The position numbers and the translations under genes are program-made. A stretch of DNA of 64,000 nt from an uncultured Thiomicrorhabdus sp. (GTDB lineage Bacteria; Pseudomonadota; Gammaproteobacteria; Thiomicrospirales; Thiomicrospiraceae), in assembly GCA_965603495.1 (NCBI GenBank), contig CBFDDF010000008.1, positions 33,887 through 97,886 on the forward strand, in the 5' to 3' direction. Position 1 is the first letter of the stretch; each line of letters opens with the position of its first letter. Shown here one piece after another: positions 11,668 through 52,187 of the stretch. The notes beneath the pieces were generated by a model, which ran no database searches, was not told where the DNA came from, and worked only from the letters and a program-made list of their open reading frames with translations.

Positions 11668-11677
11668 AAACAAACCT

Positions 11678-30065: not shown

Positions 30066-32177
30066 TTATCCTCTTCCCATAGTAGCTGAATCAGCATCTG
30101 GCGTGGCTTGTAATGATGGAGATCTTCTCACCAATCCATCCATTTGATAAGGTGACACGATCTGTACCTTAGAATCGTTATTCGCAGAAGGCATTTTGCA
30201 GGTGACGTTAGAGAAATCAACTTGATCAGCACGATTATCTAGAACTTCGCGCAGCACTTCATTGCTATGAACGTAATCAAAACCAGTAACATCAAACATG
30301 TTACCCAAAACACGCAATACCTTCCAAGCTGCTTTCGCATCACCTTTCGGCTCTACTGACATTTTGAATGACTGTTTTAAGCTATTTGCATTAACAAACG
30401 TTCCCGCAGTTTCAGCGAAGGTTGCAATCGGTAACATCACATCTGCATATTCACGCTGTTTTTCGCTATCAAATGCCGTTAGGCTAACGACAAAGTCAGC
30501 ATTAGACATTGCGACTACAGCGGCTTCTCCATCGGTAAAATCAACCTCCGGCTCGACATTCATATTAATGAATGCTTTCATACCCTGAGAAATCATCTCT
30601 GAACTGTTCTTACCTAATTTAGGTAAAAAGTTCACTAAATGTGCACCAACTTCATTCGCAGCCAAAGGCAGAATATTGAGAACAGTAGAACTGTGTTCAG
30701 CGATGATGCTTGCCAATTTCTGGATAACGGCATAATCAGCGTGCATTTGACTAATTTGACCCAGCATCATGCTGGATTTTTTAGCGTCCACAAGGTGTTG
30801 TGCAATAGCTTTATGCTCATCTGTCGGTTCAATTGAATCTAACCAGGCCTGGTCACTCTTAGCCGCGATGTCAATCACGGCTTTTGCGATGCCTGCAAGA
30901 TTAAAGACCATGCCCGCATCAACATCCGCTTGGGTAATTTTATAGTTAAAGTCGAACTTAATCGGATTAACAACAAAAACCTTAGCGTCGTCCAATACAG
31001 CTTTACGGACACGATGATTAAGAATTGGCAACTCTTTTCTTAAATAAGAACCTACAATCAATAGCGCATCTAATGTTTCGACGTCTGCGATATCATGCGC
31101 AAGAACGGGCATATTGAAACCAGTCTTATCAATTGAGAAATCAGCTTGGCGGTGGCGGTAGTCGATATTTTCCACTCCGATGCCACGTGCCATTTTTTGT
31201 AACAGGTGTAATTCTTCTAAAGTTGAATTCGCTGAAGCTAATACACCAATATCTTGACTGTTAACTAAGACTTTTTGTAAGCCTGCGACCGTAAACTCAA
31301 GTGCAGTTTCCCAGTCAACAACAGACCAAGTACCATTCTGTTTAATCACTGGCTGTGTCAAACGAGACTCAGAATTAATGCCTTCATAAGAGAAACGATC
31401 CCTATCTGACAACCAGACTTCATTGATTGATTCATTTTCACGGGGAACAACACGTTTCACTTCGTTGTTTTTTGAGTGAACAATGATATGAGAACCCATA
31501 CTGTCATGCGCAGCAATAGACTTATGTGATTTAAGCTCCCAAGCGCGAGCAGTATATCTGAACGGCTTAGAGGTTAAAGCGCCTACAGGACATAAATCAA
31601 TCATATTTCCTGACATTTCTGAGGTAATAGACTTCTCGATATAAGTACCGATTTCCATCCATTCACTACGACCTGTCGCACCTAACTCCATCATCCCAGC
31701 CACTTCTTGGCCGAAACGAACGCAACGAGTACAGTGAATGCAACGCGTCATATCAGTTTTAATCAAGGAGCCCGCATCGCGATCGCCTACGACACGCTTT
31801 GCTTCTGTATAACGGGAAACATCATCGCCATAATCCATAGCAACATCTTGTAGTTCGCACTCCCCACCTTGGTCACAAATAGGACAGTCAAGTGGGTGAT
31901 TAATCAACAAAAATTCCATTACAGACTTCTGTGCCGCAATGGCTTTCGCTGATTTTGTATGAACCTTCATACCATCGGTCACAGGTGTTGCGCAAGCAGG
32001 TAGTGCTTTCCAAGCACCTTCAACTTCAACAAGACACATGCGGCAGTTTGCTGCAATTGACAGTTTCTTGTGGTAACAAAAACGGGGGATTTGAATCTGA
32101 GCATCATCAGCAACATCAATTAGCATGTCGCCTTCTTGAGCTTCAACAACTTGTCCGTTTATCTCAATTTTTACCAT
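30066..32177 (-). CDS. nuoG: NADH-quinone oxidoreductase subunit G
   Basis: [36 protein letters not shown]. Confidence 0.97.
30842..30853. repeat. ACCAGGCCTGGT palindrome inside nuoG (reads DQAW)
   Basis: Exact copy. Confidence 0.95.
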
Positions 32178-32246
32178 AATTCTTTAACCTAAGTTTTCTG
32201 ATGGAACCCAATAATCGTGACCTATCCAATACCTGGAAGGTGCCAC

Positions 32247-33530
32247 TTATGGGTTACGATCGTAAATACTGCATCCATGTTCAATGTAGTGAACAAATTC
32301 ATCTTCAAAGTGTTCAAGCGCGCTGGTCAAGCCAATCGTAGCCGCGTCCCCTAAACCACAGATAACATTACCCATGATTTTGCCGGAAACATCTTTTAGT
32401 GCCTGAATGTCTTCTGGTTTACCCTTACCTTCAACAATACGAGTTAGAACACGGTACAACCAACCTGTTCCTTCTCGACATGGAGTGCATTGGCCACAAG
32501 ACTCATCCCAATAAAAGTGACTCAAGTTCTGCATGACTTTTACGATGTCTGTTTGATCATCCATAATAATCACCGAACCCGCGCCTAGAAATGAACCCGC
32601 TTTCGCGATGGAATCATAATCCATGTTCATTTCAAGTGCCTTTGCAGCAGGTAAAATGGCAGTGGATGCACCGCCTGGAATGACCGCCTTGAGTTGACGT
32701 CCTTTCCAAATACCGCCAGAAAGTTCTAATAAATCTTTAAATGGGGTACCCATACGAACCTCAAAATTACCTGGGTTATTAACATGTCCAGATATTGAGT
32801 AACATTTGGTACCACCGGCGTTATGTACACCTAAATCATTAAACCAATCACCACCTTTCGCTAAAATCATAGGAATAGAGGCTAATGTTTCTGTGTTATT
32901 GATAGTGGTTGGCTTACCATATAAGCCGTAACTGGCTGGAAAAGGTGGCTTAAAACGCGGCTGACCTTTCTTACCTTCGATAGACTCGATTAATGCAGTC
33001 TCTTCACCACAAATATAAGCACCTGCACCCAGGTGTGTAAACAGGTCGAAATCAAATCCAGAGCCTAAAAGGTCTTTACCTAACAGGCCTGCCTCACGCG
33101 CTTGGTTGACGGCATTATTAAAACGCTGATATGGCTCCCAAAACTCGCCACGGATATAGTTATAACCAGCAGAAGCACCAATCACATAAGCTGCGATCGC
33201 CATACCTTCGACTAACGCATGCGGGTTATAACGCAGGATATCTCTATCCTTAAACGTTCCTGGCTCACCTTCATCAGAGTTACAGACAATGTATTTCTGA
33301 CCAGGGGCAAAACGGTTCATAAAGCTCCATTTCAAACCAGTCGGAAAACCGGCTCCACCACGTCCACGGATGTTTGAGGTTTTAACTTCTTCTATGATTT
33401 CAGAAGGCTCTAATTCGCCCGCCAATACTTTTTTCCAGACTTCATAACCACCATTAGCAACATAAGTCTCTATGTCCCACGGGTTCTCGAGATGGTTTAA
33501 GCGGAAGCAGTTTTCATTTTGTACAACCAT
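32247..33530 (-). CDS. nuoF: NADH-quinone oxidoreductase subunit F
   Basis: [39 protein letters not shown]. Confidence 0.98.
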
Positions 33531-34037
33531 TTATTTCTCCCACTCCGCTAGAAGTAAATCAATCGATTGATTGGTTAAATTCTCGTAGTAATCCTTACCA
33601 ACCTGCATCATCGGCGCACCACCACAAGCACCTAAACACTCAACTTTCTTGATTGTAAAACGGCCATCTTCTGTCGTTTCACCAGGTTTGATGCCTAGCT
33701 TTTGCTCTAGGTAATCGTAAATCTCTTGATTACCACGCAACATACAAGAAATACTGTTACAGATACAAAGCTTGATCTCACCTACCGGAGCATGCTCGTA
33801 ATTACCGTAGAAAGTAGCTACCTCGTAGACTTCCATCGGAGTGATTTCAAGGTAAACTGCAATTTGATCCATCAAGTCATTCGTCAAGTAGCCGTTATGG
33901 CATTCTTGAACAATTCTTAATGCAGGCATGACTGCAGATTTTTTTTGGTCTGCTGGATAATTGGCAATCCATTTATCAATACGTGTTTTAACATCGCCTT
34001 GGATGAAATTTGCTGGGCTAGTCGTTGTCGAACTCAT
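33531..34037 (-). CDS. nuoE: NADH-quinone oxidoreductase subunit E
   Basis: CNSISC...[10 protein letters not shown] 2Fe-2S motif. Confidence 0.97.
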
Positions 34038-35287
34038 CGATCTACCTCTCCAAATACAATATCTTGTGTACCAATAATGGAAACTACATCGGCAATCATA
34101 TGACCCTTAACCATCTCATCAAGTGAGGCAAGGTGAGCGAAACCTGGCGCTCTGACTTTCATTCGATAAGGCTTATTTGCCCCATCAGAAACCATATAAA
34201 TACCAAATTCACCTTTTGGATGCTCTACCGCAGCATAGACTTCACTTTCAGGTACGGTATAACCTTCTGTATAAAGCTTAAAGTGGTGAATCAATGCTTC
34301 CATATTAGATTTAGCATCTTCACGTGAAGGCGGTGCAACTTTGTGGTCATCCGTCATCACGGCACCAGGATTCGCTTTTAGCCAATCCACACATTGCTTA
34401 ATGATTTTATTAGACTCACGCATTTCGGCCACACGCACTAAATAACGATCGTAACAATCCCCTGTAACACCTACTGGGATATCGAACTTTAGTTTATCGT
34501 AAACTTCATACGGTTGTTTCTTACGTAAATCCCACTCAACCCCTGAACCACGTAACATCGGACCAGTAAAACCAAGTTGTAATGCACGTTCTGGTGAAAC
34601 AATACCGATATCAACAGTACGCTGCTTCCAGATACGGTTATCTGTTAATAATGTTTCGTACTCATCAATGTAACCTGGAAAACGATCCGTAAAGGCCTCG
34701 ATGAAATCAAGCAACGAACCTTCACGAGTTGCATTCAATTCATCTAGCTTCTTGCCAGAGTTCCATTTTGACTTTTCATATTTAGCCATCGTATCAGGCA
34801 GGTCACGATAGACACCGCCTGGACGGTAATAGGTCGCATGCATACGCGCCCCTGAAACCGCTTCATAACAATCCATTAAGTCTTCACGCTCACGGAAGGC
34901 ATATAAAAACACCGTCATTGCACCGATATCAAGTGCATGCGCACCCAACCACATTAAGTGATTGAGGACACGGGTGATTTCATCAAACATCACACGGATA
35001 TACTGGGCACGCTCAGGCACTTCTAGCGCAAGCATCTTTTCAATGGCCATGACATAAGCATGTTCGTTAGACATCATAGAGACATAATCTAAACGATCCA
35101 TATACCCAATAGATTGGTTATATGGTTTATATTCCACTAGCTTTTCTGTTCCGCGGTGTAATAAACCGATATGCGGATCAGAACGTACAATGGTTTCACC
35201 ATCCAACTCTAGTACTAAACGAAGTACACCGTGAGCGGAGGGATGTTGGGGACCAAAGTTAAGGGTATAGTTACGAATTTCAGGCAT
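34034..35287 (-). CDS. nuoD: NADH-quinone oxidoreductase subunit D
   Basis: [20 protein letters not shown]-terminal GEVDR. Confidence 0.98.
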
Positions 35288-35300
35288 TTATTAGTCCTAA

Positions 35301-35972
35301 TTACACGTTTTGAGGTGATTTCTTACGAATCACTCTTGGAACATTGACTCTGTTTTCAATCGTGACTGGCTCATAAATAACACGCTTTTTCTCGGCGTCA
35401 TAACGAACTTCAACATGCCCAGTCAACGGGAAATCTTTTCTTAATGGATGACCGATAAAACCGTAATCAGTTAACAAACGACGTAAATCAGGATGACCAT
35501 TAAAGAGAATGCCGAACAAATCAAAAGCTTCACGCTCAAACCAGTTGGCGCAATTCCAAACATCAATAACACTATCGACAATCGGCATCTGCGTTGCTTC
35601 AGGAAAGACTTTGACTCGGATTCTTAAGTTATGCTGTATTGACAACAAATGGTAGACAACTGCAAAACGTCGATCCATCTCTAACGTTTCGTCCTCATTG
35701 TCCTCGGCAAAATCAAAGACACCACGACTGAAACCACTATTCACGGCCGTCATGGTTTCCCAATTGGCTTGACCATAATCAAGGTAATCAACGCCACAAA
35801 GATCCATTAACTGGTCAAAACCAAGCTGCTCTTTTAAAGCCTTGAATGCATCCAACGATTTCGTTGGAGACAACTCAATGGTAAGTTCATCTAAGGCGAT
35901 AGTGGATGAAACGACATCATCACCGAGGACCTGATTAACTCTTTTTTGTAAATCTAATACTGACTGTTTCAT
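35301..35972 (-). CDS. nuoC: NADH-quinone oxidoreductase subunit C
   Basis: [14 protein letters not shown]...[11 protein letters not shown]...GHPLRKDFP. Confidence 0.97.
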
Positions 35973-36018
35973 AGTAAAACTACCTTACCGCCTATTTCGC
36001 CGATGAATAACCAAGGAT

Positions 36019-36495
36019 TTATCTTGCAATGGTATTGGTGCGTTTAATTTTATTCTGTAACTGAATAATGCCGTATAACAGAGCCTCAGCGGTTGGAGGG
36101 CAACCCGGAACATAAACATCAACAGGAACAATGCGATCACAACCACGGACAACGGAATAGGAATAATGGTAATAACCCCCGCCATTAGCACAAGAACCCA
36201 TTGAAATAACCCAACGAGGCTCAGCCATCTGATCGTAGACTTTACGTAATGCAGGTGCCATCTTATTCACTAGAGTACCAGCAACAACCATAACATCAGA
36301 CTGACGAGGGCTTGGACGGAAGATAATACCGAATCTATCCAAATCATATCGAGAAGCACCAGCATGCATCATCTCAACCGCGCAACAAGCCAAACCAAAC
36401 GTCATAGGCCACAAAGAACCTGTCCTTGCCCAGTTAATCAACTTGTCGGCAGAAGTCGTGACAATCCCTTCTTTTAAAACGCCTTCTACTCCCAT
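36019..36495 (-). CDS. nuoB: NADH-quinone oxidoreductase subunit B
   Basis: [24 protein letters not shown]. Confidence 0.98.
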
Positions 36496-36842
36496 TCAAG
36501 CGCTCCCTTTCTCCACTCGTAAATAAAACCAACCACCAATAGAGACAGAAAAACCCCCATTGCCAGCAAGCCAAAGGTTCCTACTTCCTCAAGCGCAAGC
36601 GCCCAAGGAAACAGGAATGCAATCTCTAAATCAAAAATAATGAATAGAATAGCGACAAGATAAAAACGCACGTCAAACTTCATGCGTGAATCTTCAAAGG
36701 CTTCAAATCCGCACTCATATGGAGAGTTTTTCTCTGAATCTGGCTTTTGTGGACCGAGCAAATACCCAATCAAGATCGGCCCTACACCAAACATAGCCCC
36801 TAGTACGATAAAAACTAGGACTGGAAGATAGTTTTCTAGCAT
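36486..36842 (-). CDS. nuoA: NADH-quinone oxidoreductase subunit A
   Basis: [23 protein letters not shown]. Confidence 0.98.
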
Positions 36843-36870
36843 TGCTACACACCTCGTCTAGCTTTAAATT

Positions 36871-36921
36871 AACTACTGCAGCTTTGCAATAGACATTGAA
36901 CTACTGCAGCTTTGCAATAGA
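36871..36921. repeat. Tandem direct repeat AACTACTGCAGCTTTGCAATAGA x2 (36871-36893, 36899-36921)
   Basis: 23-bp exact duplication with 28-bp period between tRNA-Leu and nuoA. Confidence 0.95.
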
Positions 36922-36929
36922 TCTAAATA

Positions 36930-37014
36930 TGGTGCCGATGGCCGGACTCGAACCGGCACAGCTTGCGCCACTACCCCCTCAAGGTAGCGTGTCTACCAAT
37001 TTCACCACATCGGC
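36930..37014 (-). tRNA. tRNA-Leu (GAG)
   Basis: GCCGATGTGGTGAAATTGGTAGACACGCTACCTTGAGGGGGTAG...GGTTCGAGTCCGGCCATCGGCACCA, 85 nt with long variable arm; downstream of secG as for E. coli leuU. Confidence 0.96.
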
Positions 37015-37067
37015 ATATAGATTGAATCCAATTTTAAAAAACTGGATTCGAATATTAGTTTGTTACT

Positions 37068-37385
37068 TTAGTTTGGAATAACAGGCGCGTCAGTAGGTTC
37101 AACGACCGTTGCTGACGCTGCTTCTTTAGCAACACTTTGATAACCTTTCGCTTTCTGACTACCGATATAAGCCAAAGCTAAACTTGTCACGAAGAAAACG
37201 GCTGCGATAATCGCTGTCATTCTTGATAAAAAGGTTCCTGAACCTCCACTACCGAATACTGACTGCGAAGAACCACCGCCACCAAAGTTGGCGCCTGCAT
37301 CCGCACCCTTACCGTGCTGAATAAGCACAAACACGATAAGAAGGAAAGCTACAATTAAATGAATCGTTAGAACTATTTCAAACAT
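37068..37385 (-). CDS. secG: Preprotein translocase subunit SecG
   Basis: [17 protein letters not shown]...FLSRMT. Confidence 0.95.
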
Positions 37386-38143
37386 TACACACCTGCCGCT
37401 TTACAAATTGCCATAAAATCATTTGCATCCAAAGATGCTCCACCAATCAAGCCACCATCAATATCTGGCTGACCAAAAAGTTCTTCTGCATTATTAGGCT
37501 TAACACTGCCACCGTATTGAATAATGACCTTCTCAGCAACCGAAGAATCTAACACTGCCAATTCAGAACGGATAAAAGCGTGAACTTCTTGCGCCTGCTC
37601 GGGAGAAGCCGTAACACCCGTACCAATCGCCCAAATAGGCTCATAAGCAATAACAACACTTTCAAACGCTGTGATACCAATAACATCCAGCACAGCCTTA
37701 AGCTGTGTTGAGATTACAGATTCCATTACACCTGACTGGCGCTCCTCAAGCGTTTCTCCCACGCACAAAATAGGTGTAACACCTGCCTTCATGGCAACTT
37801 TAACTTTTGCAGCAACCTGGGCATTGGTTTCGCCATAAATCGTACGACGCTCAGAATGACCTAAAATCACATACTGACATCCTAAATCTTTAAGCATTTC
37901 TACCGAAGTCTCACCTGTAAAAGCACCCTGACACGGTTCTTCAGCGATATTCTGCCCACCGACAGATATATTGCCCGCTGTTAAACAGCGATTTGTATAG
38001 TCTACATAAAGCGCTGGCGGGCAAATTGCAATATCAACACCACTAACTTCACCTGATTTCGCGTTCAGCCCAGTGACTAAACTCAAAATAGATGCCTTTG
38101 AACCGTGCATTTTCCAGTTCCCTGCTACAAATGGTTTTCTCAC
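37385..38143 (-). CDS. tpiA: Triosephosphate isomerase
   Basis: [33 protein letters not shown]; GTG start. Confidence 0.98.
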
Positions 38144-38211
38144 CTAATATTCTCCGACACAAAAGTTTCACAATATTAGCGTTTTCTTTAATTAAAAACA
38201 ATATTGAAATT

Positions 38212-39546
38212 TTACGAAAATTCTGATTTAACCAAATTAGCCAATAGTTCAGCTACTGTTTCCACCAAATCAGCCTCTTTACCCTCAACCATCACTCGAA
38301 TCAAAGGTTCAGTACCTGATGCACGAATCAAAATTCGGCCTTCACTTCCCATCAAATCTTCGAATTCTTTAACCTTTTCTCTAAGCGGTACATTCTCACT
38401 CAATCCAAATGCACTCTCTACTCTAATATTTTTTAACACTTGCGGATACATCTCAACCACAGACGACAATTCCAATAAACTTTGGCCCGTCTGAACCATG
38501 GCTGTCAACACCTGCAAGGCTGCGACAATACCATCACCGGTAGTGGTTTTATCCAAACACAAAACATGTCCTGAAGGTTCCGCACCATACAACCAAGAAT
38601 TTTCTACCAAACGCTCCATGACATAGCGATCACCAACGTTAGTACGATGCAAATCAATACCAACAGCTCTAAGGGCATTCTCTACCCCTAGATTGCTCAT
38701 CACGGTACCGACCACACCAACAACGTTCTGTTGAAGCACTGTCGCTAAGATATAGAGAATGATATCGCCATCAACGATACCGCCCTGCTCATCGACCATC
38801 ATGACTCGGTCGCCATCGCCGTCAAATGCAATACCAAAATCTGCTCCTTCAGCAACAACCGTCTTTTGTAGCAGATCTAAATGCGTCGCGCCACAATCTT
38901 GGTTAATATTGACACCATTTGGTTCAGCACCAATAGTAACCACTTCTGCACCTAACTCTGCGAAAACATGCGGACCAATATGATAAGTTGCCCCATGTGA
39001 ACAATCCACCACAATCTTATACTCGTCAAGCTTATGCTTACCAGTAAACGTGCTTTTACAAAATTCTATATAACGACCGGCAGCATCATCAACTCGACGC
39101 GCTTTACCCAATTCTTCAGAAGGAACAACCTCCATTTCCAGCTCAAATGCCGCTTCAATAGCGAGCTCGATCTCATCGCTAATTTTCTTTCCGGCTGATG
39201 AGAAAAACTTAATGCCATTATCATGGTGAGGATTATGGGATGCACTAATGACTATCCCAGCATCTGCACGGAAGGTTTGTGTAAGATAGGCGACTGCAGG
39301 TGTTGGCATAGGACCTAGCAACAACACATCTATACCGGCAGCAATGAATCCAGCTTCTAGGGCTGATTCAAACATATAACCAGATATGCGTGTATCCTTA
39401 CCAATCATGACCGTTTTTTCACCACGGGCCTTCATAACTTTCCCGGTTGCCCAGCCAAGCTTCAACACTTGATCTGGACGAATCATCCCTTGACCGACAC
39501 GATTACGAATCCCGTCTGTACCAAAGTATTTCTTTTTACTTCGCAT
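38212..39546 (-). CDS. glmM: Phosphoglucosamine mutase
   Basis: FGTDGIR, ISASHNP, FDGDGDR, RASGTEP. Confidence 0.97.
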
Positions 39547-39581
39547 TAATTTCTAAACTCTTTTTATCGCATACTGTGAAA

Positions 39582-40418
39582 CTACATTAAATGCATCGTT
39601 ACCCGCAAGGCATCCACCGTCGCTTTAACATCATGAACCCGTACAATACTAGCGCCCTTAATAGACGCCAAAACAGCCGCAGCGACACTCCCGAACAACC
39701 TATCTTCAACAGCTGCACCGTTTAAAATATCACCAATCATACGCTTTCTGGAAACCCCCACTAGGAGCGGATACCCTAAATTGGTAAATTGGTCTAAATT
39801 TTCGAATAGCTGGCTATTATGCGCTAAATTCTTACCAAACCCAAACCCTGGGTCCAAGATAATTTGGCTACTGGCCATTCCGGCCTGTCGACAAAGGCTA
39901 ACTCTCGTTAACAAGAAATCACTGACCTCCGTCACTACATCATGATATTGAGGGGCATCCTGCATAGTTGAGAATTCACCCAACTTATGCATCAGACAAA
40001 CAGTAGCACCGGAATTTACAACACATTCAACTGCACCTTCTGCCTGCAATGCATTGACATCATTAATCAACCTTACCCCCATACTAACGGCTTCTGACAT
40101 CACTTCTGTCTTATAGGTATCAATAGAGATAGGCGTATCGTAACGTGCAGCAATCCATTCAATCACAGGCAATACTCGATCCAACTCTTGCTGTAAACCT
40201 ACCTGAACTGCACCAGGCCTGGTTGACTCACCACCGACGTCAATAATATCAACTCCTGACTGAACCATCGTTTCTACCCGCTGAGCAATCTGCTCTTCAG
40301 AAGTAAAGGCCCCGCCATCCGAAAAAGAGTCAGGTGTGATATTCAAAACCCCCATCACTAAAGGCATGTTGTTCTGAGTTGATGATTTCTGGGCTATCAG
40401 TGCATTAATGTCTAACAT
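39582..40418 (-). CDS. folP: Dihydropteroate synthase
   Basis: MGVLNITPDSFSDGG, GGESTRPG, DPGFGF, GVSRK, IVRVHDV. Confidence 0.97.
   Translation of the reverse strand: MLDINALIAQKSSTQNNMPLVMGVLNITPDSFSDGGAFTSEEQIAQRVETMVQSGVDIIDVGGESTRPGAVQVGLQQELDRVLPVIEWIAARYDTPISIDTYKTEVMSEAVSMGVRLINDVNALQAEGAVECVVNSGATVCLMHKLGEFSTMQDAPQYHDVVTEVSDFLLTRVSLCRQAGMASSQIILDPGFGFGKNLAHNSQLFENLDQFTNLGYPLLVGVSRKRMIGDILNGAAVEDRLFGSVAAAVLASIKGASIVRVHDVKATVDALRVTMHLM
40212..40223. repeat. ACCAGGCCTGGT palindrome inside folP (reads TRPG)
   Basis: Exact copy. Confidence 0.95.
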
Positions 40419-40432
40419 GATTTTTCCTATTC

Positions 40433-40463
40433 AAAAAAAAACCCCGATACAACGGGGTTTTAT
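40433..40463 (-). terminator. Intrinsic terminator after ftsH
   Basis: Minus strand AAAACCCCG-TTGTAT-CGGGGTTTTTTTTT. Confidence 0.85.
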
Positions 40464-40480
40464 TCGGCCATCAAGAGACC

Positions 40481-42454: not shown

Positions 42455-42608
42455 TGACTACCTTTTCACCACTTTACAAGACATTTTTTAGTAGAGCATC
42501 CGCTCTGCAAAATGTCGTTTAAATTTTTATATTTATCCAAGTACTTTACCATAATTTTCATAAATAAAACTTATGGTGCACTTAAAAGACTCGTTCCAAT
42601 AAGCTTTA

Positions 42609-43229
42609 CTAAGCTTTTTTGCCTCGCGCCAACAAATAGATTTCTTTGCTTCTTGCACGAGAAGAATCAGGCTTTCTAGTGATAACCTTTTGATACTTTG
42701 ACCTCAAAGTAATCAACAATTGATCATAACCCTCACCCTGAAAGACTTTCATTAATAAGTCACCATTGGGTTTTAAAACTTGACCTGCTAATTCAACACA
42801 TAAATCGACTAAATACATTGCTCGGGGAATATCAACCCCTTTATTACCACTCATATTCGGTGCCATATCTGACATAACCACGTCAACATCTCGACCCGCT
42901 AAAGCCGACAACAAACCGTCATAAACCTCATCCTCTCTAAAGTCTCCCTGAATAAAGGTAACCCCAGCAAAGGGCTCAACAGGCAAAATATCTAAGGCAA
43001 AGACCTCACCCTTACTGCCAACTTTGTGTGTCGTCCACTGTGACCAGCCGCCAGGAGCCGCACCTAAATCAACAACACACATGCCCGGCTTGAACAAACC
43101 ATCCTTGTCATCAATTTCTTGTAGCTTATAAACTGCACGCGAACGCCAGCCTTCTTGCTTTGCCTTTTGGACATATGGATCGTTAAAATGTTCTTTTAAC
43201 CAAACGTCACTCGATTTACTTCTCGCCAT
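42609..43229 (-). CDS. rlmE: 23S rRNA Um2552 methyltransferase
   Basis: RSRAVYKL, DLGAAPGGWSQ, SDMAPN, KVFQG, SRARSKE. Confidence 0.97.
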   Translation of the reverse strand: MARSKSSDVWLKEHFNDPYVQKAKQEGWRSRAVYKLQEIDDKDGLFKPGMCVVDLGAAPGGWSQWTTHKVGSKGEVFALDILPVEPFAGVTFIQGDFREDEVYDGLLSALAGRDVDVVMSDMAPNMSGNKGVDIPRAMYLVDLCVELAGQVLKPNGDLLMKVFQGEGYDQLLITLRSKYQKVITRKPDSSRARSKEIYLLARGKKA

Positions 43230-43293
43230 AATGCGTTTTCAACTACAATATACAAATACTATTAATTAATAATGACCATGATTGGAATATTCA

Positions 43294-43602
43294 ATGAGCC
43301 AGCCAGAAAAACTTACCAATAATCAAAAAAAATACCTACGTGGCATTGCCCACGGATTAAACCCGATGATCATGATTGGTGCTAACGGTGTGACAGAAAG
43401 CCTAATGGCTGAACTGGAAAGCACTCTAGCCCATCATGAAATTCTTAAAATCAAAATCGCCAGTGCTGATCGAGATGAACGTAAAGAAATCATTCAGCAT
43501 CTTGTGAAAGAAAGCGGTGCGCTTCTTGTTCAAACAATCGGTAAAATCTGTGTCATCTATCGCCAGAATGATGAAACTGAACTACCACTTCCTAGAAACT
43601 AG
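43294..43602 (+). CDS. yhbY: CRM-domain ribosome assembly RNA-binding protein YhbY
   Basis: QKKYLRGIAHGLNP, IGANG, HEILKIK, QTIGK; divergent from rlmE. The track starts at TTG 43282. Confidence 0.93.
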   Translation: MSQPEKLTNNQKKYLRGIAHGLNPMIMIGANGVTESLMAELESTLAHHEILKIKIASADRDERKEIIQHLVKESGALLVQTIGKICVIYRQNDETELPLPRN

Positions 43603-43709
43603 TTCAGCAGTCAATCGCACAGTCTAAGCGGAGTGGAATCAGAGGTACGATTACCATTCAGCCCGCTAAGTAGCCAAATTTTACTTAGCGGACCTTCTTC
43701 ACTAATCCG

Positions 43710-44888
43710 CTATTTCAACAGATCCAAACCTCTAGCAAGATCTGCTTTAATATCTTCAATTGATTCCAAACCAACTGATACACGTACCAAGTTATCCGTG
43801 ATACCAGCCTTAAGTCTCGCTTCAGGCTCTACTCGAACATGCGTTGTTGTCGCTGGATGGGTGATGCTGGTTTTGACATCACCTAGATTTGCAGTTATGG
43901 ATAACATTTGAGTATGATCGATGACCGACCACGCTTCAGCCTGATTACCCTTCACTTTAAAACTCACCAAACCGCCGCCAGCAGATTGCTGTTTACAAGC
44001 CAACTCATACTGTGGATGCGACTTTAATCCAGGATAAAAAACTTGCTCTACCGCAGGATGCAAAGAAAGCCACTCTGCTAATTGCAATGCGCTTTGACAG
44101 TGTGCGGCCATTCTGATAGGTAACGTTTCCAGACCCTTTAAAAAAATCCAAGCATTAAATGGACTCATTGAAGGTCCTGCTGTTCGCATAAAACCACGGA
44201 CATGCTCATCAACCAATTCATTTGATCCAACAACAGCACCACCGATACCTCTTCCTTGGCCATCTAGAAACTTTGTAGCTGAATGGATAATAATATCAGC
44301 ACCTTGCTCAAGAGGTCTTTGCAGAATCGGTGTACAGAAGCAATTATCGACAATCAGCAAACAATTATTGGCCTTGGCCAAAGCGCTTATGATCGATAAA
44401 TCCGCGATTTCTGTCAATGGATTTGAAGGCGTCTCTAAAAAGAAAGCTTTGGTATTTGACTGAATCGCGTCTACCCATTCCGAAGTGTCCGTCTGCGAAA
44501 CAAACGTCACCTCAAGTCCAAATTTAGCTAGGTATTTATTGAAAAGAACCTTGGTGGTACCAAAAACACTTTGCGAACAAATGACATGATCACCAGACTC
44601 ACATAAAGCCATAAAGGTAGAGAGAATGGCTGCCATGCCTGATGCAGTACCCACACAAGCTTCACCACCTTCCATTAGCGCAAGGCGATTCTCAAATGCA
44701 CGGACGGTTGGATTGGTAAAGCGAGAATAAACGTTTCCCTTCTCTTCGCCGCTAAAACGTGCAGCTGCTTGAGCCGCAGATTTATAACGAAAACTTGAAG
44801 TCGGAAAAATCGCCTCACTATTCTCTTGCTCTTGCGTTTGATCGTAACCCGCACGAACTGCTAATGTTTCAATATCAAATGAATGCAT
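43710..44888 (-). CDS. metZ: O-succinylhomoserine sulfhydrylase
   Basis: YSRFTNPT, ETPSNP, HSATKFLDGQGR, ANLGDVK; position after purF. Confidence 0.92.
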   Translation of the reverse strand: MHSFDIETLAVRAGYDQTQEQENSEAIFPTSSFRYKSAAQAAARFSGEEKGNVYSRFTNPTVRAFENRLALMEGGEACVGTASGMAAILSTFMALCESGDHVICSQSVFGTTKVLFNKYLAKFGLEVTFVSQTDTSEWVDAIQSNTKAFFLETPSNPLTEIADLSIISALAKANNCLLIVDNCFCTPILQRPLEQGADIIIHSATKFLDGQGRGIGGAVVGSNELVDEHVRGFMRTAGPSMSPFNAWIFLKGLETLPIRMAAHCQSALQLAEWLSLHPAVEQVFYPGLKSHPQYELACKQQSAGGGLVSFKVKGNQAEAWSVIDHTQMLSITANLGDVKTSITHPATTTHVRVEPEARLKAGITDNLVRVSVGLESIEDIKADLARGLDLLK

Positions 44889-44920
44889 TGTAATTCTCTA
44901 TCATTAAAAACAGCAAAGCT

Positions 44921-44932
44921 ACCAGGCCTGGT
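44921..44932. repeat. ACCAGGCCTGGT palindrome in the purF-metZ spacer
   Basis: Exact copy; a half copy ACCAGGC follows at 44947. Confidence 0.95.
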
Positions 44933-44961
44933 CAAAGTTAATTAAAACCAGGCAACCATTT

Positions 44962-46479
44962 CTAGCTACCGTTATAAATTCCGACCGTTTCCTGACCGGA
45001 AGCTTGTTTAGTCGCTTGTGCATCATCATTACGTGCACTATCTATAGACGCTAAATACTCAGGCGTAATATCTCCTGTGGCATAAATTCCACTGAAACAA
45101 GAGGTATCAAATTCAGCAATCTCTTCATTACCCACCCCGACCGCTTCAATCAAATCTTCCAAGTCTTGATAGATTAATTTATCACAACCAATAATTTCGG
45201 CCACTTCTTCAACGGTTCGATTACTCGCGACCAACTCTGTCGGTGACGGCATATCAATTCCATAAACATAAGGAAAGCGAACAGGGGGTGCCGCAGAGGC
45301 GAAATATACTTTTTTAGCGCCCGCTTCACGTGCCATTTCAACGATTTGTGCAGAGGTGGTACCACGAACAATCGAATCATCGACTAATAACACGTTTTTA
45401 CCTTCGAACTCTAAACCAATTGCATTCAGCTTTTGACGTACAGATTTTTTACGTAACTGTTGTCCAGGCATAATGAAGGTACGACCGATATAGCGGTTTT
45501 TGATAAAACCTTCACGATATGGAGAACCCAATCTAGAGGCCAATTCTAATGCAGAGGTGCGACTGGTATCCGGAATCGGCATCACCACATCGATATCATG
45601 ATCTGGCCACTCTTTAAGGATTTTATCCGCAAGCTTTTCCCCCATACGTAGACGAGACTTATGAACGGAGATGTTATCAATCATTGAATCAGGACGAGCA
45701 AAATAAACAAACTCAAAGATACAAGGCGATAATTTCGGATTTTCAGCACACTGCTGAAAGAAAATCTGACCGGAATCCGTAATAACGACCGCTTCACCAG
45801 GTGCCAAATCTTTCAATAACTCGAAACCCAGCCCATCTAAGGCGACAGACTCAGAAGCCACCATGTAATCAAAACCATCCGCATTTGCGCGTTGTCCAAC
45901 CACCACTGGTCGCAAACCAAAAGGATCACGAAAAGCTACGATACCGATATTAGAAATAACGCCGACAGCAGCATAACCACCACGCACACGTTTATGTACA
46001 TTACGAACCGCATTAAAAACATCTTCATGGTCAATAAACAGTTTCTTCTGCTGCATCAATTCATGAGCAAAAATATTTAAGAGTACTTCAGAGTCAGAAT
46101 TGGTATTCAGGTGGCGTAAGTCTTGACGATAAATGTCTTGAGCCAACTCATCAGCATTGGTTAAGTTACCGTTATGCCCCATCGCAATACCATAGGGTGA
46201 GTTAACGTAAAATGGCTGAGCCTCTGCACTCGAAGAAGAACCTGCCGTAGGATAACGAACATGGCCAATTCCAATATTACCATGCAAATCTCGCATGTGA
46301 CGTGTACGAAACACATCCTTAACCATGCCGTTATCTTTACGCTGATAAAAACGCCCTTGGTCACAAGTCACAATACCCGCGGCATCCTGACCACGATGTT
46401 GTAACGTAGTTAAAGCATCATAAATCTCTTGACCAACCGTTTGGCCGTTAGCCAGTACAATCCCAACAATACCGCACAT
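44962..46479 (-). CDS. purF: Amidophosphoribosyltransferase
   Basis: N-terminal [34 protein letters not shown]. Confidence 0.98.
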
Positions 46480-46526
46480 CTTTGTACACTCTCTTACTTA
46501 AAATTTGTTGTCCAGCTTATTGCTGT

Positions 46527-47123
46527 TCAATTAAGTTGCACGACTTCTGCATTCGTTCGTAACATTTTATCTAATTTTTGCTTGTCTTGTTCAGCTTTGG
46601 CTTTAGAAAAATAAGGCCCTGTTCGCACTGAATAAGTTGCAGTTTTTTTAAATTCTTTAATCGACACTTCATAATTGGATTCAAGACGCCCCAGTAAGTG
46701 ATTGGCTTTCTTGATATCTTTATAGGCCGTCACTTTGACAATCCACTGTGGTGGAGTGTGTTTATCCATTTTAACAGCACTGACTGACTCTGTTTTTTTT
46801 TCAGAAGTCACTTGATTAGCGATTTGGCGGGGCGCTACATCTACACTTTTATCCGTCGCTGACGGTGATGAATTTAAGGCTGGCGTTATAACAGCTTGCT
46901 GATTCGTCACTGGAGTGCTTTGAACCTCCACTTGCTTCTGTCGGGTTTGCACGGGCAATTCATAAACATGCTCAACCAAGGGGCGCTCGCCCTTGATTAA
47001 TTCAACCTGATGGCCTAAAGGTTGGAAATTAACAGGGTGACTATACCAACCTGGGACCACAACCACCAATAAAAGCAGCCAAATAACGGCACCGGTTAAA
47101 CGATACTTGCTTACTTCATCCAT
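46527..47123 (-). CDS. dedD: SPOR-domain cell division protein, DedD-like
   Basis: RLTGAVI + TM, low-complexity linker, C-terminal SPOR-like WIVKV...VRTGPY; follows folC. Confidence 0.75.
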   Translation of the reverse strand: MDEVSKYRLTGAVIWLLLLVVVVPGWYSHPVNFQPLGHQVELIKGERPLVEHVYELPVQTRQKQVEVQSTPVTNQQAVITPALNSSPSATDKSVDVAPRQIANQVTSEKKTESVSAVKMDKHTPPQWIVKVTAYKDIKKANHLLGRLESNYEVSIKEFKKTATYSVRTGPYFSKAKAEQDKQKLDKMLRTNAEVVQLN

Positions 47124-48459
47124 GAACAGAACCCATCATTTCAGCAGACGTGTTCGAAGGTAAATTCATCAACACTTGAGACACTGTAAAAAATGAACCC
47201 CAAACTAACACATCTTCTGCAGCACAGCTTCTAGCATAAGCAACTGCATCAGCCATACTATGCTTGGCAATGATATTTGAATCTTCGACCCCGGCTGCAT
47301 TCAATAAACCACGCAGTGCTTCAACCGAGGTTGCTCGAGGTATCTCTAAATCGACAATCACCCAAGTAGACACAAAAGGCGCTACCTGTTGAACCATCGG
47401 TAATGCATCTTTATCGTTTAATACCGAAAACAGAGACAAATAACTTAACTGATTTTGCTTCGTTTGCTGCTGTAAATAATCAGCCAAAGCTTGCGCTGAC
47501 TGAGGATTGTGGGCAACATCAATCAACCAGGATTGCGGCCCAAACTCTATGGACTGCAATCGACCGGGGTGACAGACCTGTTGCAAGCCTAACTTAATCG
47601 CTTTACGATCAACCGGCAACGAGGATCCAAGTTTAGATAATAGAGCAACCACCCCTGCTGCATTATTTAATTGAAACTCACCTTTAAGAGCTGGAAAAGG
47701 TAAATCATCTAATGCACCAATCAGCTGAACAGCATTTTGCTGCGTCAACCACTTAAATGACCAGGCCTGGTCAGTTACTTGCAAATCGAAATCAACTTTA
47801 AACTGACTTAACGGCACTGCATGTTTACCTGCATAAGCCATTAAACTGGCCGGAGGATTCATATCCGAACAAATTGCGGGTTTTCCACTGCGCATGATAC
47901 CGGCTTTTTCCGTAGCGATAATACTGCGGTCATCCCCTAACCAATCTACATGATCAATATCAATCGCCGTAATCAAAGCTGCATCTGCATCGACAATATT
48001 GACTGCATCCAGGCGGCCACCTAAACCAACCTCAAGCACTACAACATCTAATTGCGCCCGTTTAAAAATATAGAGTGCCGCTAAGGTAGAAAACTCAAAA
48101 TAGGTTAATTTAGTTTCTGCTCTAGCCGCTTCAATCGCTATAAATGCCTCAATGATCAAATCATCACTGACGGGATTGCCGTTAATTTGTATACGTTCGT
48201 TAAAAAACTGGATATGCGGGGAAGTATAAGCGCCGACTTTATAGCCAGCGGCTTTGACAATCGCAACCAATAACGCAACACTAGAGCCTTTACCATTGGT
48301 TCCAGCAACACTAATCACCAATGGCCCAGGCCTGGTAATTTGCATAGCTTCAGCCACCAGACGAATCCGGTCAAGGCCAAGGTCTATTTCTTGAGCGTGT
48401 AATTGAAGTAACCAATCAACCCAGTCGGTTAGACTGGATTGACGATTCGGAATTGTCAT
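47116..48459 (-). CDS. folC: Dihydrofolate synthase / folylpolyglutamate synthase
   Basis: VAGTNGKGS, YTSPH, EVGLGGRLDA, DVAHNP. Confidence 0.97.
   Translation of the reverse strand: MTIPNRQSSLTDWVDWLLQLHAQEIDLGLDRIRLVAEAMQITRPGPLVISVAGTNGKGSSVALLVAIVKAAGYKVGAYTSPHIQFFNERIQINGNPVSDDLIIEAFIAIEAARAETKLTYFEFSTLAALYIFKRAQLDVVVLEVGLGGRLDAVNIVDADAALITAIDIDHVDWLGDDRSIIATEKAGIMRSGKPAICSDMNPPASLMAYAGKHAVPLSQFKVDFDLQVTDQAWSFKWLTQQNAVQLIGALDDLPFPALKGEFQLNNAAGVVALLSKLGSSLPVDRKAIKLGLQQVCHPGRLQSIEFGPQSWLIDVAHNPQSAQALADYLQQQTKQNQLSYLSLFSVLNDKDALPMVQQVAPFVSTWVIVDLEIPRATSVEALRGLLNAAGVEDSNIIAKHSMADAVAYARSCAAEDVLVWGSFFTVSQVLMNLPSNTSAEMMGSVHG
47760..47771. repeat. ACCAGGCCTGGT palindrome inside folC (reads DQAW; extends to TGACCAGGCCTGGTCA)
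   Basis: Exact copy. Confidence 0.95.
48325..48336. repeat. ACCAGGCCTGGT family copy inside folC (CCCAGGCCTGGT, reads TRPG)
   Basis: One mismatch at the first base. Confidence 0.85.
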
Positions 48460-48542
48460 ATTTTTTTAAATCTTTGTCCCCGCGCATTGCGAGACTGAGG
48501 TAAATAATTACAAATTGATAAGTGACTAAACACTAAAGTAAA

Positions 48543-49397
48543 TCAAGCAGATTTGTTCAATAACATCTTACAAATATCAGACAGCTCATTCGCCAGTTCA
48601 TGGCGGTGAATAATACGATCAATCGCACCGTGCTCAAGCAAAAATTCACTACGCTGAAAACCTTCAGGCAACTTCTCTCGAACAGTCTGCTCGATAACAC
48701 GAGGCCCTGCAAAACCAATCAATGCTTTAGGCTCTGCCACATTCAAATCACCTAACATCGCAAAACTGGCTGAGACGCCTCCCATTGTAGGATCTGTCAA
48801 TACCGAAATAAACGGTAAACCTTTTGCACGTAATCGGCCTAATGCAGCACTGGTCTTCGCCATCTGCATTAAAGAGAATAACGCCTCTTGCATACGCGCA
48901 CCACCACTGGCTGAAAAGCAGATAAATGGGCATTGACGCTCAATCGCTTCATTCACACCACGGACAAACTTCTCGCCAACGACAGAACCCATTGAGCCGC
49001 CCATGAACTTGAATTCAAACGCAGCCGTCACAACTTCTAAACCATTAATGGTTCCAACACCAGTAATTAAAGCATCCTTCTCACCGGTGGCTTTTTGTGC
49101 AGCAGCAATTCGATCTTTATATTTTTTAATGTCTTTAAATTTAAGCGCATCCACTGGTGAAATATTCGCAGCAGTCTCTTTGAAACTTCCTTCATCCAAA
49201 AATGCATGTAGACGCGAACGACCCCCTAAACGCATATGGTGCTGACACTTAGGACAGACTTCCTTATTGCGCGCTACTTCTGAGCGATAAAGTGTCGCCT
49301 CACATTTAGGACACTTAGTCCACAAGCCTTCAGGAACGGACTTTTTGCGTTCAGTAACTTGTTTAATACTCGGTAAAATCTTTTCGAACCAGTTCAT
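48543..49397 (-). CDS. accD: Acetyl-CoA carboxylase carboxyltransferase beta subunit
   Basis: CPKC...CPKC zinc finger, [30 protein letters not shown]. Confidence 0.97.
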
Positions 49398-49399
49398 GT

Positions 49400-50230
49400 C
49401 TACTCCTGACCTTTTAGTGCATCGGCTCTGTCTATAGCGTGCCGAAATTCTGCCATCTTTTCGCCAATGGCAAGATGAATATCATAACGCCCTTTGGACT
49501 CATTGGCTTCGATTAATTTGACTAACGAAGACCCCACCACCACGGCATCGCCCAGTTTTGCCATTTCAAACGCCATTGGCCCATTATTAATCCCAAAGCC
49601 AATACCAATAGGTATATTTAATTTAGTTTGTAGTCGTGCCATGTTATTGGCAACATCCACCGTATCTAACTCTTTTGAGCCTGTCACCCCTTTTAGGGAA
49701 ACATAATAGACAAAACCGCTACCTTTCTCATTAACTGACTGTAAACGACTGTCCGGCGTGGTCGGTGAAACTAAAAAGATACGATCTAATTCATGTGTAC
49801 TCAGTGCCTGTAAATAACCTTGAGATTCTTCAGGTGGCATATCAACAGTCAATACCGCATCCACACCCACAGAGCTTGCTGCATTGGCAAATTCTTCATA
49901 GCCCATCGCTTCAATCGGGTTTAGATACCCCATTAAAATAATCGGGGTTTCACTATCCTGCTCACGAAAGACACGGACAAACTCAAGTACATCATCCAAA
50001 CTGACATTGTGACGCAATGCTCTTTCAACGGCTTTTTGAATAACGGGACCATCAGCCATCGGATCCGAAAAAGGCACGCCTAATTCAAGCATGTCAGCAC
50101 CTTTTTGAACGAGCAAATGCATTAAATCTATGGTTGCATTTGGCTCGGGGTCACCAGCTGTGATATACGGAATTAAAGCCGTTTTACCGACCCTTTTTAA
50201 TTCCTCGAATTTTTCTTGTATTCTGTTCAT
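49400..50230 (-). CDS. trpA: Tryptophan synthase alpha chain
   Basis: [29 protein letters not shown]. The track starts at 50260; ATG 50230 is more likely. Confidence 0.96.
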
Positions 50231-50340
50231 ACTATTTTTTCCTAAAAAAGCATCCATCAAATCATGACCGATTACGACTCAAGCTGAATAAGTTCTGATT
50301 CATCTAAGGCAAATAGAGTTTCGCCATATAACAAATTATT

Positions 50341-51546
50341 TTAGAATTCAAACCCTTCAATTTGTGCAATGGTATTCATATCTTTATCACCGCGCCCAGA
50401 CAAGTTGACGACAATCATCTGGTCTTTAGACATGGTTGGCGCCAATTTAGTCGCATATGCAATCGCATGACTGGATTCCAGTGCCGGAATAATACCTTCA
50501 TATTTGGTTAGATCTCTAAAACCCTGTAACGCTTCTTCATCGTCAATTGCGACATACTCGACACGTTTAATATCTTTTAACCAAGCATGTTCAGGCCCCA
50601 CGCCGGGATAATCTAGACCTGCGGAAATAGAGTGCGTCCCTAAAATTTGACCATGCTCATCCTGCATCAAATAGGTACGATTACCATGTAGAACGCCTGG
50701 CTTACCTTTACATAAAGGCGCCGCATGCTGCCCAGTTTCAAGCCCTAAGCCACCAGGTTCAACTCCCACCATTTTGACACTGTCATCGCTTAAAAACTCA
50801 TGAAACAGACCAATGGCATTTGACCCACCGCCGACACAAGCGATCAACACATCTGGTAATTTACCTTCCTGCACTAATGATTGTTGCTTGGCTTCACGAC
50901 CAATAATCGCCTGAAAATCCCTCACCATACCAGGATATGGATGTGGCCCTGATACCGTACCAATAATATAGAAAGTATCATCGACATTCGTTACCCAGTC
51001 ACGCATCGCTTCATTCAGTGCATCCTTCAAAGTACGCGAACCGGATTCTACACCAATCACAGTCGCACCGAGCATTTTCATTCGAGCCACATTTGGGGCT
51101 TGACGAATAACATCATCTGCCCCCATGTAGACAACACATTCCAAACCTAAACGAGCGGCAACCGTCGCACTAGCAACACCGTGTTGCCCAGCACCAGTTT
51201 CTGCAATAATACGGGTCTTGCCTAAGCGTTTTGCAAGCAGCGCTTGTCCAATCGCATTGTTGACCTTGTGGGCACCAGTGTGATTCAAATCTTCACGCTT
51301 TAAATAGATTTTTGCACCACCCAAAGATTCAGACCAACGTTTCGCATAATATAAAGGCGTAGGACGCCCTACATAGTTTTGTAGATCTTCAGCCAACTCT
51401 TTTAAAAAATCAGGATCGTTCTTAACACTTTTATACTCCTGATTAAGTTGCTCCAATGCTGCCATTAAAGTTTCTGGCGCAAAAATACCACCATAAGGAC
51501 CAAAATGCCCGTGTTCATCAGGGTATTTAGAATAATCTATTGTCAT
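50341..51546 (-). CDS. trpB: Tryptophan synthase beta chain
   Basis: [44 protein letters not shown]. Confidence 0.98.
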
Positions 51547-52187
51547 TGGACTGTACTCATAACTTGTTGCATAAATTTTTGTATTTTTTCAGCGGATTTT
51601 ACCCCTTTCGAAGCCTCTACTCCGCCACTGACGTCAAGCGCCCAGGGCGCGACCTGTTGAATGGCTTGCTGAACGTTTTCAGCCTTTAAGCCACCCGCTA
51701 AAATAATTCTTTTGGCTATGTCTGATGGGATACTCGCCCAATCAAACTGCTCTCCCGTACCACCAGGAATGCCTTCTTTGTAAGCATCCAACAGCAGGCC
51801 TGCCGAACTGCTATAGCGCGCTTCCAAAGCGACTAAATCAATACCTTCTCGCATTCGAACGGCTTTAATATACGTCAGACCAAACTGTTCACAGAACTCG
51901 GGACTTTCATCTCCATGAAACTGTAATAGATCAATTTTTACCGCGCTTAACACCGTTTTAACGTATTCAACATCCGGGTTCACAAATAAGGCAGTCTTAG
52001 TCACAAATGCAGGAATAGATTCCGCAATTGACCAGGCCTGGTCAATACTCACGTGACGTGGACTTGGTTCATAAAACACCAAACCAATGGCATCTGCGCC
52101 GCAATTCACAGCGAACAATGCATCCTCCGTAGAGGTCAATCCGCAAATCTTAACACGTGTTCTTTGATTAGCGAGACTCACTGCCAC
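51543..52187 (-). CDS. trpF: Phosphoribosylanthranilate isomerase
   Basis: [32 protein letters not shown]. Confidence 0.97.
52031..52042. repeat. ACCAGGCCTGGT palindrome inside trpF (reads DQAW; extends to ATTGACCAGGCCTGGTCAAT)
   Basis: Exact copy within a 20-bp perfect palindrome. Confidence 0.95.

Follow-up and report, generated by a model that had tools for sequence, protein, structure and literature searches.

A highly iterated palindromic DNA word, shared across the Thiomicrorhabdus–Hydrogenovibrio–Thiomicrospira family, that leaves its imprint on codons and peptides

The 64,000-nucleotide stretch analysed here (the window), from an uncultured, sulfur-oxidising Thiomicrorhabdus species, is studded with a 12-base palindrome, ACCAGGCCTGGT, that recurs hundreds of times in the genome to which it belongs. 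We consider it very probable that this is a DNA word found family-wide and iterated many times over, of the same kind as highly iterated palindrome 1 (HIP1) of cyanobacteria and the uptake sequences, shared by the Thiomicrorhabdus–Hydrogenovibrio–Thiomicrospira family, and that its copies arise in place and are maintained at the level of DNA. The phenomenon is known; a gammaproteobacterial family is a new setting for it. Our literature search found no paper linking these genera with an iterated palindrome or an uptake sequence.

The genome under study (G000; assembly of 2.64 Mb, 42.3% G+C) contains 594 copies of the 10-base core CCAGGCCTGG, and 522 of them are full 12-mers; base composition predicts about one. 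The word tops the genome's lists of both 10-mers and 12-mers, and no rival comes near it in abundance. The window itself holds 13 cores (shuffle mean 0.01) and 11 full 12-mers, with five copies in coding sequence and eight between genes. The word is a perfect palindrome, lacking the orientation typical of the uptake signal sequences (USS) of Pasteurellaceae and the DNA uptake sequences (DUS) of Neisseriaceae. Its inner core (CAGGCCTG as an 8-mer, CCAGGCCTGG as a 10-mer) has weak AAA..T and A..TTT flanks. A weaker palindromic extension is visible around it, with consensus AAAnT[G/T]ACCAGGCCTGGT[C/A]AnTTT, and conservation ends at about 24 bp. One-mismatch variants cluster at the outer positions.

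By our own gene calls, 238 of the 594 cores (about 40%) lie in coding sequence and 356 (about 60%) between genes, where terminator-like hairpin tips are the usual position. Densities are 0.10 per kb in genes and about 1.0 per kb in spacers. Spacer density peaks between convergent genes (2.2 per kb) and is lowest between divergent genes (0.47 per kb), where the promoter-side spacers nevertheless hold 40 copies. All three reading frames are used, the coding copies reading PGL(V) in 101 cases, (T)RPG in 24 and (D/Y/H/N)QAW(S/L) in 113. Copy density is uniform over the contigs and spacing is Poisson-like (coefficient of variation of the gaps 1.06, short gaps near the exponential expectation); the quasi-periodic spacing that characterizes HIP1 was not seen in the gap distribution of G000.

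The imprint of the word on proteins is real and very strong. It is a consequence of a known type: uptake sequences and HIP1 are both known to leave peptide imprints (PMC2817400, PMC5861425), in agreement with what an initial annotation of this DNA, made by reading the window, had stated. That annotation also proposed that the palindrome is written into proteins through codon choice, and suggested comparing codon usage at TRPG, DQAW and PGLV with background across the proteome. Usage proves to be far from the background of about 1–2%. PGLV is spelled CCA GGC CTG G.. in 84 of 99 cases, TRPG is spelled ACC AGG CCT in 21 of 25, and DQAW is spelled GAC CAG GCC TGG in 54 of 57, whereas genomic codon usage predicts the motif spelling in 0.5–2.4% of cases per peptide (log10 P from −44 to −143). 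Among all Arg codons of the genome, AGG accounts for just 4.4%. Moreover, the peptides themselves are too numerous. Amino-acid composition predicts 14.8 occurrences of PGLV, 4.4 of TRPG and 2.0 of DQAW, against the 99, 25 and 57 observed (a 6- to 28-fold excess), and those not spelled by the word occur in about the number that composition predicts. Two effects of the word follow: it has fixed codons and it has made new peptides. The idea of codon choice is supported, with the nuance that, although codons are fixed at compatible peptides, silent change alone covers a minority of coding copies, because most copies altered the protein. When coding copies were set against a motif-free relative, only about 13% proved purely synonymous, and the remainder involve amino-acid changes.

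The coding copies in the window illustrate both routes, and here the codon readings of the initial annotation agree with ours throughout. The open reading frames (ORFs) were identified by NCBIfam matches above cut-off, with the exception of MYG1. In nuoG (TIGR01973; ORF 30066–32177, minus strand) the 12-mer at 30842–30853 (core from 30843) reads GAC CAG GCC TGG, or DQAW, within KSDQAWLD (AGT GAC CAG GCC TGG TTA). In folP, encoding dihydropteroate synthase (TIGR01496; ORF 39582–40418, minus strand), the 12-mer at 40212–40223 (core from 40213) reads ACC AGG CCT GGT and encodes the TRPG of the conserved GGESTRPG motif, rare AGG codon included; this is a purely synonymous recoding. The folC gene (NF008101 and TIGR01499; ORF 47116–48459, minus strand) has two copies. 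One is a 12-mer at 47760–47771 (core from 47761), spelling GAC CAG GCC TGG for the DQAW of VTDQAWSF where the motif-free congener G003 has KDSW; the other is a 10-mer core at 48326–48335, spelling ACC AGG CCT GGG for the TRPG of QITRPGP, with one outer mismatch to the 12-mer, where G003 has QKPT. In trpF (NF002298; ORF 51543–52187, minus strand) the 12-mer at 52031–52042 (core from 52032) again reads GAC CAG GCC TGG and places DQAW in SIDQAWSI; the corresponding site is DQAA in G003 and GAC CAG GCC TGC, one mismatch away, in the motif-rich relative G022. A one-mismatch copy, AGCAGGCCTGGT, was also confirmed at 11052–11063 in a MYG1/UPF0160 gene (PF03690; ORF 10825–11667, plus strand), where the peptide is TAGLVW.

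Its folP places G000, by similarity, in the Thiomicrorhabdus group of Thiotrichales. Comparison of orthologues within the genus shows that the motif spelling of folP and nuoG follows the motif-rich genomes. The folP peptide GGESTRPG is unchanged in all 29 congeners examined. Its ACC AGG CCT spelling, however, is found in nine of ten motif-rich congeners and in one of the 19 others, which code the arginine by CGN (Fisher p = 1e-5, uncorrected for phylogeny), and the adjoining silent positions vary freely. The nuoG site reads GAC CAG GCC TGG in every motif-rich congener and [E/A/N]QAW, with CAG GCC TGG, in genomes with intermediate counts. Motif-poor congeners are variable here (SPNW, AQDQ and others), and basal motif-poor genomes have unrelated residues (KHEL, KVDL, SDAF, NDAL, TDPI). 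Two motif-poor genomes do encode DQAW at this site, but by other codons: GAT CAA GCT in G003 and GAT CAG GCA in G044. We therefore did not find what the initial annotation said would contradict it, namely DQAW conserved in genomes lacking the word together with background codon choice at compatible peptides.

Two genomes depart from the folP pattern. G020, which has the genus maximum of 718 copies, spells TRPG without the motif (ACT CGC CCA GGA), and G002, 83% complete and with only six copies, has the motif at this site. Site occupancy is therefore not strictly bound to genome-wide abundance.

How do the copies come about? The initial annotation favoured point mutation over transposition, and both coding and intergenic comparisons support this. 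Against G003 (800 kb compared), 41 of 48 alignable coding sites are ungapped within six residues on either side and only two have a gap inside the motif codons; the extra residues that an in-frame insertion element would add were not found in these 41 windows. Across the codons of the 12-mer the two genomes differ by 0, 1, 2, 3 or 4 residues at 6, 9, 8, 14 and 9 sites, respectively. These are less conserved stretches, with local amino-acid identity of 0.54 compared with 0.64 gene-wide. Between genes, we compared 193 syntenic spacers with those of the closest motif-rich relative, G022 (400 kb compared). Motif-bearing spacers have equal copy number in 15 cases and are discordant in 16; in at least ten of the discordant spacers the homologous position shows one or two substitutions or a small indel, and none of the 16 shows the clean presence or absence of a discrete element.

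Once present, the word is held, which accords equally with selection and with biased conversion, the two possibilities named by the initial annotation. Of 17 compatible peptides conserved between G000 and G003, seven are motif-coded in G000 and none in G003 (P = 8e-10). Coding 12-mers are common to G000 and G022 exactly at 22 of 36 sites. At identical residues, third bases agree between these two genomes in 106 of 116 cases within motifs (91%) but in 67% elsewhere (p = 1e-9), and the word stands at the same site across species whose remaining silent sites are scrambled. Origin by substitution and maintenance at the DNA level are thus well supported.

The distribution of the word among relatives is strikingly uneven. 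Counts of the 12-mer range from 0 to 718 per genome within the genus, and sister lineages hold either 400–700 copies or none. In a nuoG tree, motif-rich genomes fall at three or more places, and motif-poor lineages are nested between them. Four of the seven genera of the family have the 12-mer in abundance (in all 11 sampled genomes of one and patchily in three); it is absent from the other three. From this pattern we infer an old origin followed by repeated losses. No substitute iterated word was found in motif-free G003. Moreover, the outer bases differ between lineages, as judged from 400 kb each of three genomes, so that in such genomes the motif is commoner than 12-mer counts suggest. G062 uses A-S-CAGGCCTG-S-T, with C and G about 50:50 at S and variation at position 2/11 only. 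G081 uses N-CCAGGCCTGG-N within GC-rich longer palindromes (AAACGCCCAGGCCTGGGCGTTT), with variation at position 1/12 only, and G066 prefers CACCAGGCCTGGTG.

We conclude that copies are made in place, through nucleotide substitution at sites already similar to the word, rather than by insertion. Where a protein already had PGLV, TRPG or xQAW, only silent bases change, as in folP and nuoG; at other coding sites one to four amino acids are replaced, mostly in poorly conserved stretches. In spacers, the word settles at the tips of terminator hairpins. A copy once present is held by a force acting on DNA rather than on protein, because copies occur in every frame and in non-coding DNA, and because silent positions within the word are conserved far above background. 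Such a force would presumably need a conserved factor that reads the word; several lineages may have lost this factor, after which the word vanished.

A number of points weigh against this reading. The division into coding and intergenic copies comes from a simple, crude gene caller (2,227 genes, 86.7% coding DNA), and the comparisons with G003 and G022 used partial genomes. The AAA../..TTT flanks are faintly echoed in coding copies, a trace that a short inserted element would also leave. Gaps near coding sites are somewhat enriched (7/48 compared with a background of 5%, P = 0.012), so that a few copies may have come with small indels. Finally, no reader protein of the word was found among the candidate families searched.

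What, then, could the force be? The possibility to which we give most room, while still regarding it as somewhat short of an even chance, is that DNA bearing the word is preferred for uptake or recombination in the course of natural transformation, a molecular drive of the USS/DUS type. Molecular drive of this type has now also been proposed for HIP1. Only slightly less likely is selection for a site bound by a different DNA-binding protein. More tentatively still, the word might be the signal of a third, independently evolved, family-level system of uptake or recombination preference, after the USS of Pasteurellaceae and the DUS of Neisseriaceae; we think this doubtful but worth stating. If true, a palindromic third uptake system, with the dialects A-S-CAGGCCTG-S-T, N-CCAGGCCTGG-N and CACCAGGCCTGGTG, would bridge uptake sequences and HIP1, and phylogenetic profiling should then be able to single out the receptor gene from the several natural losses within one genus.

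Several observations count against uptake as the force. USS and DUS are oriented, whereas the word here is palindromic and about four times less dense. ComEC is universal in the genomes searched and is therefore uninformative, and the presence of TfoX_N does not follow the motif. PilT/PilU occur in 61 of 71 family genomes, and the ten without them have mostly intermediate 12-mer counts. We considered whether the word is decaying in PilT-less genomes, in which the ratio of one-mismatch to perfect copies is 1.6–2.0 compared with 0.33–0.39 in PilT-positive genomes. However, the mismatches fall almost only at outer positions, and in the complete genomes G062 and G081, which lack PilT/PilU, the inner 8–10 bases are as clean and as dense as where PilT is present. 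These two genomes therefore show dialects rather than decay, and the word is maintained without PilT/PilU, which weakens, without refuting, a model of uptake dependent on pilus retraction. Pasteurellaceae are transformable without PilT. For its part, G000 has ComEC, PilT, PilU, a PilB/MshE-like ATPase and pilins.

One unusual pilin cluster (G000 contig C4:78887–86980) deserves mention. Its members are an ORF of 342 residues, three large prepilin-like proteins of 268, 507 and 473 residues and a pair of pilins of 191–211 residues; the first four proteins share a (Y/F)(L/F)PCPD motif, and a PilR/PilS-like two-component pair is present. In the proteins of the cluster that were scanned, NCBIfam matched nothing but the N-terminal methylation motif. 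The cluster's proteins are candidate DNA receptors.

Other explanations for the copies themselves are all much less probable. A mechanism that makes and keeps the word by mismatch repair is unlikely, though it has a precedent: Elhai reportedly proposed a model of methylation and short-patch repair for cyanobacterial HIPs. Here a cytosine methyltransferase acting at an internal site such as CCWGG, GGCC or AGGCCT would work with a Vsr-like nuclease that converts near-matches in very-short-patch fashion. The word does contain two CCWGG sites as well as GGCC and AGGCCT, its one-mismatch variants are concentrated at outer positions as in HIP1, and in cyanobacteria, for which the model was proposed, HIP abundance follows cognate methyltransferases (PMC4390886). 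However, neither Vsr (PF03852) nor the methyltransferase families covered by the search, C5 cytosine (PF00145) and N6/N4 (PF01555), gave a match in G000. Vsr is absent from most motif-rich genomes, and the motif-rich G011 and G016 likewise lack all three, as does G017 save for a sub-threshold PF00145 match. The model is thus without support here, and the positional conservation of sites speaks, in the argument of Xu et al., against continual neutral replenishment (PMC5861425). Spread of a small mobile palindromic element, inserting in genes and spacers alike, is more improbable again, whether as a repetitive extragenic palindrome (REP) moved by a REP-associated tyrosine transposase (RAYT) or as an in-frame miniature inverted-repeat transposable element like the Rickettsia palindromic elements. 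G000 has a RAYT-like gene and every motif-rich genus-mate has at least one match; the 24-bp extended consensus in coding copies, the mild enrichment of gaps near sites and a minor longer repeat of five to six copies with the motif at one end would also fit. Yet 40% of the copies are in genes, where most compared sites are ungapped against the motif-free orthologue, the folP and nuoG copies sit on residues that exist in all relatives, species differ by substitution in place, and nothing is conserved beyond about 24 bp. Moreover, the single Y1_Tnp/RAYT-like gene of G000 (C2:50216–50884, 222 residues) was rejected as a driver: its flanks carry other hairpins, of GGGG..CCCC type, and the Y1_Tnp family also occurs in at least eight motif-poor genomes.

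Selection at the RNA level only, with the word as the preferred tip of bidirectional intrinsic terminators and coding copies as a by-product, is also very improbable, even though the intergenic copies fit it well. Their density is tenfold higher than in genes and greatest between convergent genes. In G000, 48% of them lie within 60 nt of a stop codon, and 57% form the middle of a perfect palindrome whose arms measure at least 7 nt and up to 25 nt. The outer arms are long and differ among copies, with T runs after them, and between G000 and G022 the stems show compensatory changes while the word at the tip is retained. But a terminator role is not the primary function of the word, because 238 copies lie inside genes, where about one is expected and silent sites are held. 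Terminators within nuoG, folP or trpF would be harmful, the copies in divergent spacers stand on the promoter side, and a four-pair tip with a GGCC loop adds only about −2 kcal/mol. We read terminator tips instead as sites at which almost any sequence is tolerated, so that the word accumulates there, much as uptake sequences do in terminator stems. Selection on the peptides PGLV, TRPG and DQAW themselves is scarcely credible. TRPG is functionally essential in dihydropteroate synthase and the tryptophan is often conserved at QAW sites, but one DNA word is common to three unrelated peptides in three frames and to the 356 non-coding copies. Codon choice is fixed even though synonymous alternatives prevail across the genome, and motif-free relatives use ordinary codons for the same peptides.

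A HIP1-like or uptake-sequence-like word arising in place can be set beside both known systems. HIP1 (GCGATCGC) and the alternate cyanobacterial palindromes are, like the word here, short, GC-rich, hundreds-fold over-represented and found in three frames as well as non-coding DNA. Both HIP1 and our word are positionally conserved beyond background (for HIP1, PMC5861425), and both show lineage variants, patchy absence and one-mismatch variants mainly at outer positions. Nucleotide substitution is also how HIP1 is described as spreading (Robinson et al. 1997, as cited in PMC4390886), a mode of propagation that the two share. They differ in host phylum (here Gammaproteobacteria, Thiotrichales), in the word and in its recognised length, which is greater here (12, up to 24 bp). 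Unlike HIP1, the word has a strong preference for intergenic DNA and terminator tips, its spacing is Poisson-like rather than quasi-periodic, and G000 is without a cytosine methyltransferase of the usual families.

The word also resembles USS and DUS. These too are words of 10–12 bp with AT-rich flanks, conserved at family level with dialects, and with a comparable share in ORFs (34.5–65%, against 40% here; PMC2817400). They likewise have intergenic copies in terminator stems, leave a peptide imprint, prefer poorly conserved residues and are absent from recently acquired genes. The origin of our word by point mutation fits the molecular-drive model of USS and DUS. The tetrapeptide excess here, at 6- to 28-fold, compares with roughly twofold for tripeptides in USS/DUS. 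The likeness to an uptake system is one of genome signature, and two relatives hold the word without PilT/PilU.

Further repeat families resemble the word less. REPs with RAYTs, too, lie downstream of genes as short palindromes in their hundreds, and G000 does have a RAYT-like gene, but REPs are imperfect, longer, essentially intergenic and clustered around the RAYT gene. The NTS/dRS3 repeats read by the Ssn GIY-YIG single-strand nucleases (PMC11893778) also number hundreds of palindromic copies, and in Neisseria they are tied to modulation of transformation. SRM repeats, by comparison, are hairpins of about 30 bp with an 8-nt loop, clustered around particular genes and flanking ssnA, and are unrelated in sequence to the word.

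How iterated palindromes such as HIP1 are maintained has been a question for thirty years, and this family offers an unusually clean natural experiment. Because sister lineages hold 400–700 copies or none, and because the same sites (the TRPG of folP, the DQAW of nuoG) flip their spelling between them, the gene that reads or drives the word should be findable by comparative genomics. The word also shows a DNA-level signal overriding codon usage, to the point of placing an Arg codon of 4% usage in a catalytic motif, and rewriting hundreds of protein positions. In practical terms, it marks the lineage, flags laterally acquired islands and is a candidate sequence for improving the transformation of these chemolithoautotrophs.

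The intergenic copies in the window are varied in setting. Between convergent genes, a terminator-like hairpin at 1755–1798, with a 20-pair stem followed by a T run, carries the core 1772–1781 at its tip. Another terminator-like hairpin, at 11673–11694, lies 11 nt past the MYG1 stop and has the 12-mer 11678–11689 at its tip. The 12-mer at 59624–59635 centres a 24-nt perfect palindrome 26 nt past a stop codon, and G022 has a copy at the same place with one substitution. Further intergenic 12-mers lie at 21472–21483, at 44921–44932 in a 73-nt spacer between two minus-strand genes, and at 56646–56657, also between two minus-strand genes, the last with no alignable copy in G022. Downstream of the minus-strand ORF 3565–4632, two intergenic 12-mers (3428–3439 and 3452–3463) start 24 bp apart; each is preceded by AAAACG, and the pair resembles a local tandem duplication of a motif-bearing unit. 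An Rfam scan of the window returned two tRNAs only and no match at motif sites.

Three other small repeats touch on the word or its neighbourhood. In the G022 spacer orthologous to G000 C10:32775–32977, a 21-bp palindromic piece, ATACCCCGCTAGGGGGTATAA, lies exactly at the motif centre and splits it as ACC|AGGCCTGGT; this motif, with ATACCCCGCTAGGGGGTATAA in it, sits at the tip of a textbook terminator hairpin. The case suggests a tiny inserted element that targets the centre of the palindrome. The longer repeat mentioned above, TGACCCTGCGCTCACATGRTTTTGTAAAGCCGCAGGACATGCCAGGCCTGGT, has the palindrome at one end and occurs in five to six copies on contigs C1, C2, C7 and C10 of G000 (for example, C7:62590) and in two G022 spacers; it may be a mobile-element end or an integration site. 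Around the RAYT-like gene (C2:49900–51200), the flanking hairpins are of the AAAGGGGTCAGACCCCTTTT and GGGGACGCTACCC types and would be a second, different family of small palindromic repeats.

Finally, some stretches of the genome are free of the word. These include low-GC, laterally acquired islands, one with a type I restriction enzyme and an SMC-like ATPase and others with polysaccharide or sugar-nucleotide clusters, as well as the rpoBC–ribosomal protein cluster. Uptake sequences are likewise missing both from acquired DNA and from genes under the strongest constraint (PMC2817400). A further stretch, C6:26432–87210, spans 60.8 kb of normal composition (G+C 0.426) with no copies where about 14 are expected. 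It encodes a 2,643-residue repeat-rich adhesin-like protein, two large proteins of unknown function (1,054 and 892 residues) and a NirB-like protein, and may be a recent acquisition whose composition is similar.

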